From positions 39,866,001 through 39,930,000 of the forward strand of contig OZ076412.1 of the NCBI GenBank assembly GCA_964187785.1: DNA of 64,000 nt, read 5' to 3'. The position numbers and the translations under genes are program-made. Shown here in pieces: positions 12,947 to 13,130 of this stretch (positions within the stretch are counted from its first letter, which is position 1; each line of letters begins with the position of its first letter). Source of the stretch: Amphiscolops sp. MND2022. Lineage: Eukaryota. The notes beneath the pieces are model-generated. The model made no database searches and had not been told where the DNA came from. It saw nothing but the letters and a program-made list of their open reading frames with translations.

Positions 12947-13130
12947 AGTAGTGTATATAATCGTATTTGACGCCAGCGCGAAGGGCGCAAGCTGGCTCAC
13001 TTCGTTCGCCCCCTTGCTTCGCCATTCGCTTCGCTCATGGCTACTTCGCGCTAACGTCAAATACGATTATATACACTACTTCTTTACCATCCTTACACCT
13101 ATCGTTAAATACGATTTCTTACACTACTTT
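12947..13130 (+). repeat. Polinton left terminal inverted repeat (self-complementary)
   Basis: Terminal 26-mer AGTAGTGTATATAATCGTATTTGACG, its exact reverse complement at 13055-13080, and a degenerate third copy ending at 13128. Confidence 0.9.

Follow-up and report, generated by a model that had tools for sequence, protein, structure and literature searches.

In the Polinton analysed here each end is a self-folding unit, in which the terminal sequence can pair with an inverted copy of itself lying inside the same end, and this folded-end design is standard for this Polinton lineage in the genome examined. The architecture is conserved, its spacers carry a strand-biased fold, the two arms are identical within an end, no inversion of the arms is seen and integration uses the outer arm only. 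The window, i.e., the whole stretch of DNA analysed (64 kb), contains a complete element of 15,358 bp at 12947–28304, whose testable features are all those of a Polinton and whose boundaries and genes are as follows.

12941–12946, no strand: target-site duplication AATATG, left copy
13932–14672, + strand: ORF of 246 aa, without family match
15473–15883, + strand: probable adenain-type protease (His64, Asp75 and Cys106 read off the sequence)
16058–17269, + strand: probable minor capsid protein of 403 aa, so labelled from the gene set; without family match
18591–19412, − strand: packaging-type ATPase with N-terminal zinc finger, Walker A (86) and Walker B (149)
19633–20484, + strand: retroviral-like integrase (PF00665, E 1e-12)
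21794–23023, + strand: annotated feature, label not given
23313–23678, + strand: Cys-rich ORF of 121 aa, candidate end-binding protein
24383–27955, + strand: pPolB, 1190 aa (PF03175, E 1e-14)
28305–28310, no strand: target-site duplication AATATG, right copy

The element shares with the Polinton/Maverick group (pfam03175-type “Alpha” adintovirus class) the pPolB, RVE integrase, ATPase and double jelly-roll capsid genes as well as the 15-kb length, the AGTAGT ends and the 6-bp target duplication. The double jelly-roll MCP matched PF21738 (E 6e-20) and the packaging-type ATPase a PHROG family (E 4e-6); the 136-aa protease candidate, recognised by its His/Asp/Cys motif, was without match in Pfam and PHROG, and the 246-aa ORF was without tblastn match in the other Polinton families tested. 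In pPolB the polymerase and exonuclease motifs were found together with vOTU-like Cys237/His332 motifs and an insert characterized as an HNH/endonuclease VII-like domain (PF02945, E 4e-4, below the cut-off), while residues 50–335, the putative terminal-protein region, matched unnamed eukaryotic clusters only and gave no match in the PDB sequence search. Some local features of the window are also recorded. The Cys-rich N-terminal part of the ATPase (18591–19412) gives weak endonuclease VII PHROG matches (E 0.005), and 51-bp repeats at 19461–19623 lie between the divergent ATPase and integrase genes. The zinc-finger start of pPolB is duplicated (23956–24493), with a 101-aa ORF at 24045–24350 that repeats the first polymerase residues and with 36-bp tandem repeats. 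Subterminal repeats occupy 13208–13413 and 13647–13873 (59 bp ×3, 103 bp ×2), and a host repeat at 1520–2360 and 10671–11130 has 378-bp inverted arms 85 bp apart, its second copy being 9 kb off.

The two end units are composed of the following parts.

12947–12972, + strand: left outer arm, terminal 26 nt (G at 26), then CC
12997–13007, − strand (3′-ending strand): GA-AC-GAA-GT-GA mini-hairpin with 3-bp flanking stem
13026–13036, − strand (3′-ending strand): GA-GC-GAA-GC-GA mini-hairpin with 5-bp flanking stem
13055–13080, − strand: left inner arm, inverted terminal 26 nt (G at 26), then TT
13103–13128, − strand: relic inner arm left from an older end; the terminal 26-mer differs from it at 4 positions
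27986–28011, + strand: older relic inner arm, differing at 9 positions from the terminal 26-mer and at 4 from a family-B arm
28057–28082, + strand: right inner arm (A at 26), then TT
28188–28222, + strand (3′-ending strand): three GA-NN-GAA-N′N′-GA mini-hairpin motifs (28188, 28197, 28212)
28279–28304, − strand: right outer arm, terminal 26 nt (A at 26), then CC

The initial annotation reported the terminal 25–26-mer at four places, a degenerate copy ending at 13128, and a capacity of the left 134 bp and the right 248 bp to fold back, and each of these observations was reproduced. The terminal 25-mer occurs at 12947 (+), 13080 (−), 28057 (+) and 28304 (−), where 100 shuffles give an expectation of 0, the degenerate copy is the relic at 13103–13128, and the inverted copy of the terminal 26 nt lies 134 bp inside the left end and 248 bp inside the right one, so that spacers of 82–196 nt separate the 26-bp arms. 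Both units, which are about 90% identical over the arm regions and begin with AGTAGT at both termini, fold to a flush AGTAGT duplex with z = −11.0 and −4.7 on the 5′-terminus strand and z = −12.0 and −5.4 on the 3′-terminus strand, and in each of the four unit/strand tests 0 of 200 shuffles were equally stable. The relic at 13103–13128 differs by 1 position from the left arm of mini-element L093, with an identical 32-nt inward context. The older relic at 27986–28011 is additional to those of the initial annotation. The Rfam search returned a single, sub-threshold match, and the sole RNA run listed covers just an inner tandem repeat.

Across the genome (1.07 Gb) 298 exact terminal 25-mers were counted, the first 100 of which are listed, against 0 for the reversed control. 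Outer arms of CC type number 140 (75 G-type and 65 A-type), and 132 of them pair into 66 inward-facing elements of 2.9–23.4 kb, with ends of G+A type in 61 elements, G+G in 4 and A+A in 1. In 26 element pairs checked the target duplication was exact in 22, had one mismatch in 2 and was absent in 2. As the 140 CC arms are mostly paired and the elements carry duplications, integration takes place at the outer arm, the one with the CC mark. The initially proposed alignment of family-copy ends thus shows the internal inverted copy to be standard for this lineage in this genome, and a local rearrangement or assembly artefact is ruled out by a design common to 66 paired elements and several families. 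The elements L018/L033 and L021/L088 are full-length with flanks that form no target duplication, which suggests copy exchange or an assembly switch.

The stem has a fixed length. Among 98 arm pairs from fetched loci, a biased sample in which 30 loci were picked by likeness to the left end of the window element and an intact start was required in both arms, the perfect stem measured 26 bp in 84, 27 bp in 1 and less in 13, and 11 distinct self-matched 26-mers were present. All 87 pairs with a stem of at least 24 bp have CC at 27-28 in one arm and lack it in the other. The sister family, whose pPolB is 73% identical, has a 181-bp unit with the identical 26-bp stem length, CC outside and AC inside, so that at this distance, and with unrelated spacers, both the CC mark and the 26-bp boundary have been retained. 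Four other AGTAGT-ended Polinton families of the genome (pPolB 31–34% identical) have plain TIRs, with no inner copy in 8 of 8 ends and with 8–10 mismatches in the best inner match to the terminal 20-mer, and family B, which has folded ends, possesses near-perfect (99%) TIRs of 285–344 bp.

No inner arm is of the outer (CC) type, neither among 71 left nor among 63 right arms, some of the latter being tandem extras, and hence there is no flip-flop. This bears on a self-primed rolling hairpin, in which the folded 3′ end would itself serve as the DNA primer for extension, with resolution of the hairpin afterwards in parvovirus or poxvirus style. The fold does leave a paired 3′-OH beside a template overhang, and this route has been proposed for the terminal palindromes of Halocafeteria virophages/PLVs in bioRxiv 10.64898/2026.07.28.741278; however, symmetric resolution inverts the hairpin, contrary to the 0/71 and 0/63 counts, and no HUH Rep family was found by Pfam among the 12 element proteins scanned. 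What is left is an asymmetric variant only, with CC/TT as the orientation mark, and the explanation as a whole is judged decidedly unlikely. Asymmetric hairpin resolution is the mode of the MVM left end. The hairpin telomeres of parvoviruses and poxviruses resemble the present ends in their imperfect terminal palindromes with a branched spacer, but here there is neither flip-flop nor HUH Rep, and the ends are open and inserted by integrase.

The spacers resemble simple repeats but are arrays of mini-hairpins with a strict polarity. In 58 distinct units two-pair GNA hairpins were counted 183 times on the 3′-ending strand and once on the 5′-ending strand, and full GA-NN-GNA-N′N′-GA motifs, present in 55 of the 58 units, 107 times and 0 times, respectively; at left and right ends alike it is always the 3′-ending strand that carries them. 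Because a motif carried by one strand is necessarily missing from its complement, what these tests measure is enrichment and polarity. The units have 1–3 motifs each, while dinucleotide shuffles of 8 units gave no more than 0.08, and the observed count was reached by 0 of 1000 shuffles in 7 units and by 12 of 1000 in 1. Only 2 full motifs were found in 97 kb of flanking DNA and none in 8 ends of plain-ended families. The motif cores covary (GC/GC 71, GA/TC 19, AC/GT 17), the loop is GAA in 105 of 107 full motifs, and 81 of the 107 have flanking stems of 2–7 bp with unrelated sequences. Tandem GA/GA pairs are stable in DNA. GCGAAGC itself is described in PMC13037366 as a DNA hairpin of exceptional stability, which resists heat and nucleases, contains a sheared G-A pair and occurs at replication origins.

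The same source places GNA mini-hairpins in the early promoters of phage N4 (PMC13037366), which would allow the fold to be a transcription signal of this kind, or else a packaging mark, and not a replication signal. Against this, the ends are common to families with capsid, ATPase and integrase only 33–48% identical, both units are kept in gene-less mini-elements, and the exact 26-bp terminal stem is left unexplained; a promoter or packaging role is therefore considered highly improbable. In families A and B, which have the end type in common, pPolB is 84–99% identical, in comparison with 39–45% for integrase, 42–48% for capsid and 33% for ATPase. The 121-aa ORF is 77–86% identical to that of family B and 53–55% to that of the sister family, and it has no match in the four plain-ended families. 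The end type thus appears to track pPolB and not integrase or capsid, which points to replication, although about 100 bp separate pPolB from the right unit and so its co-inheritance with the end type may be linkage. In many family-A copies pPolB has about 345 extra residues (G000 copies, frames of 1537–1541 aa), and the sequence P0003 shows intein-splicing and homing-endonuclease Pfam domains, which together suggest an intein polymorphic within young family A.

The HNH insert was tried as the partner of the hairpin and ruled out as a correlate, since pPolB of all four plain-ended families carries the same insert; such inserts are described as common in bioRxiv 10.1101/2023.08.22.554363 and PMC11071308. 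For the same reason a dedicated hairpin resolvase was not identified, the insert not being specific to hairpin-ended families. This weakens the proposal that each unit extrudes a double-stranded cruciform, which the HNH/endonuclease VII-like domain of pPolB would cut for precise chromosomal excision. By sequence such a cruciform could be extruded from each unit with its base at the exact element boundary, pPolB has the weak PF02945 match, and the route would leave the ends unflipped; but a cruciform is symmetric, yet the mini-hairpins are on one strand only, and the solo-unit footprints that it should leave at donor sites did not turn up among the outer arms and fetched loci checked. The chance of cruciform excision is regarded as very small.

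The outer and inner arms are matched within an end. In related families the terminal sequences vary mainly at positions 9–21 and 26, yet outer and inner arm agree over 26 nt. Over 26 distinct pairs an arm had on average 1.46 mismatches to its own partner versus 4.73 ± 0.33 to shuffled partners (0 of 10,000 shuffles), although the units are related, so that the shuffle statistics overstate independence, and 3 outer arms had no inner arm. A cleaner test of co-evolution is available where an element has unlike ends: among 66 family-A elements 61 have G at the left and A at the right end while the arms match within each end, and in both intact mini-elements the arms agree within an end better than across ends. 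At one end (C151) a G/A mismatch at 26 is left uncorrected, and repair is therefore not obligatory. A mismatch common to L098 and L100 was discarded as two events and counted as one, because the flank is also common.

Such identity could be a neutral by-product, if an old snap-back duplication were kept identical by mismatch repair or conversion while a panhandle between the two ends did the work. The four AGTAGT-ended families without inner copy in 8/8 ends would agree with this, as would the recombinogenic nature of the ends (tandem extra inner arms, mosaics) and two single-copy elements, L099 and L053 (one of 1.4 kb, the other of 191 bp), which have intact duplications but no inner arm at one end. 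Also, energies calculated without sheared pairs and the long loop favour the panhandle over the pair of local folds in all 6 cases compared, the margin being 16 to 166 kcal/mol. However, the 26-bp boundary and the CC mark are kept at 73% pPolB identity with unrelated spacers, covarying, strand-specific mini-hairpins are unexpected under neutral conversion, and both intact mini-elements retain two full units, so that a neutral origin seems very unlikely.

These intact mini-elements are of 360 bp (duplication ATTGTT) and 363 bp (ATCAAA). The initial annotation regarded each end unit as an integrase-competent mini-element and possible MITE source, which was not sustained: no solo unit with target duplication was present among the 140 exact outer arms, nor in 135 unit checks of fetched loci, where only a 191-bp element with outer-type arms at both ends was seen. 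The 8 unpaired outer arms comprise 6 with element sequence inside, 1 belonging to the 360-bp two-unit element and 1 leading into element-like sequence. No diverged solo units were found either in DNA searches that scored 40 candidates each, a depth at which rare diverged solos may escape.

The end replacements at C11:22092437, where a right unit was added outside the left inner arm, and at C3:91193302, where a left unit sits at the right end, together with the tandem extra inner arms and mosaic ends of some elements, indicate that the two ends recombine. Right ends of L032, L035, L037, L089 and L090 have up to five inner copies in alternating 66–78-bp or 85-bp units, and those of L036 (137–669) and L074 have a new 165-bp unit plus several hundred captured bases outside the older inner arm. 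L070 (C12:27223973–27226869) is a 2.9-kb internally deleted derivative which kept both units, the left one being a mosaic with a right-unit patch.

To these observations we would attach a mechanism in which the folded single-stranded 3′ end is protected, repaired by fold-back and protein-primed, and which on the sequence evidence has about an even chance of being correct. On a displaced or looped-out strand the 3′ end would fold in cis into a “rabbit-ear”, i.e., a terminal duplex of 26 bp whose closing spacer consists of GAA-triloop mini-hairpins that contain tandem G·A pairs. Such a fold would form at once, without the other end 15 kb away, and would shield the 3′ end. Trimmed 3′ ends would be refilled on the inner arm, and the proposed rewriting of the outer arm from the inner one would account for the agreement of the arms at each end. 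Either the stem or the mini-hairpins may recruit the terminal-protein/pPolB complex, with priming at the terminal AGTAGT, and CC at 27-28 may mark the outer arm as the sole usable origin, from which neither flipped ends nor solo units would be expected. The panhandle would still form at times, as the left-right conversions suggest, without having to be the usual pathway. A further scheme, in which a primer is synthesised at the 5′ hairpin and then transferred to the 3′ terminus of that strand, was considered and ruled out by inference, since it would equalise the ends, yet in 61 of 66 elements one terminus has retained G and the opposite one A.

Several facts count against the folded-end reading, namely the 285–344-bp TIRs of family B, the left-right conversions and the elements without one inner arm. 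In phi29 an origin is less active when the displaced strand has a 5′ overhang, and ordinary synthesis is primed from a recessed 3′ end (PMC4150772). The initial idea that local snap-back rebuilds a duplex origin is thus upheld as to the snap-back, which is family-wide, with co-evolving arms and a strand-specific fold, but not as to a working origin from snap-back alone, against which the phi29 overhang and the panhandle stability speak. In a bolder version, which is unlikely, the lineage would have swapped the panhandle for self-contained, Streptomyces-like 3′ telomeres, and the fold base would mark the exact boundary. The terminal-protein/pPolB complex would then prime on an integrated copy while this is transiently single-stranded and copy the element out of the chromosome without excision, and the 121-aa ORF would be a Tap-like end-binding protein.

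The published model for Polintons is an end-to-end “racket” (PMC4196379), whereas here each end folds alone. The nearest known likeness is with the archetypal Streptomyces telomeres (“Rabbit Ears”), in which, according to PMC5449611, a terminal sequence pairs with an internal copy over about 130–250 nt and GNA loops are located on the 3′ single strand. Protein priming and fold-back repair are described there for Streptomyces, Tap repairing truncated ends on the fold-back (PMC5449611), and both are what we infer for the Polinton ends. The systems differ in that the Streptomyces one is bacterial, with an internal origin, end patching and Tap/Tpg in place of pPolB, and Tpg/Tap-type Pfam families were not found among the 12 element proteins scanned; the likeness would be one of convergent design, and homology is not claimed. 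In the Halocafeteria seosinensis virophages/PLVs a palindrome also lies inside the TIR beside the target duplication. These palindromes (bioRxiv 10.64898/2026.07.28.741278) are of about 52 nt, were sought with no more than 10 nt allowed as a gap and occur preferentially with non-pPolB replication genes, while the window element has pPolB, 26-bp arms, an 82–196-nt structured spacer, an asymmetry mark and strand-specific mini-hairpins. Bidnavirus TIRs are stated not to form parvovirus-type hairpins (PMC4061559).

No description of this end design in pPolB Polintons was found in the literature searched, Repbase and subscription papers lying outside the search. Neither “hairpin” nor “palindrom” is used in the main text of two surveys, one of vertebrates (PMC8097293) and one of nematodes, “hairpin” is likewise missing from PMC8502044 as searched, and neither palindrome nor hairpin is mentioned in PMC12220804. 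One candidate precedent, bioRxiv 10.1101/2022.05.25.493380, was rejected because its hairpins are protein β-hairpins. What appears to be new, then, is a self-folding, strand-specific end in a pPolB Polinton, terminal palindromes being known from virophages/PLVs mostly without pPolB. Close pPolB relatives outside this genome are proteins with 59–74% identity. The exact end pattern was not found in viral contigs, a single-protein scan was likewise negative, and 87 viral or metagenomic loci (pPolB 29–42% identical; 80 of the 273 metagenomic matches), mostly partial contigs, had no AGTAGT hairpin ends. Distant metagenomic relatives (L159:4530–4703, L182:158–250, L125:4674–4823) contain 26–41-bp palindromes or stem-loops near contig ends or upstream of pPolB, which are not of the AGTAGT type.

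Exit of Polintons from the chromosome and restart on a single strand have been a model since 2006, and even for PRD1 and adenovirus there is said to be no direct evidence of panhandles (PMC11886824). A non-canonical fold kept on the 3′-ending strand only is sequence-level evidence that the ends exist as single strands. For experimental work these ends offer a 134-nt substrate, natural variants, plain-ended controls in the same genome and natural mini-replicons of 360 bp. The folded ends suggest a route of end copying or repair not found described for such elements, and, if true, this would represent convergence of a eukaryotic virus-like element with the protein-capped telomeres of bacteria.
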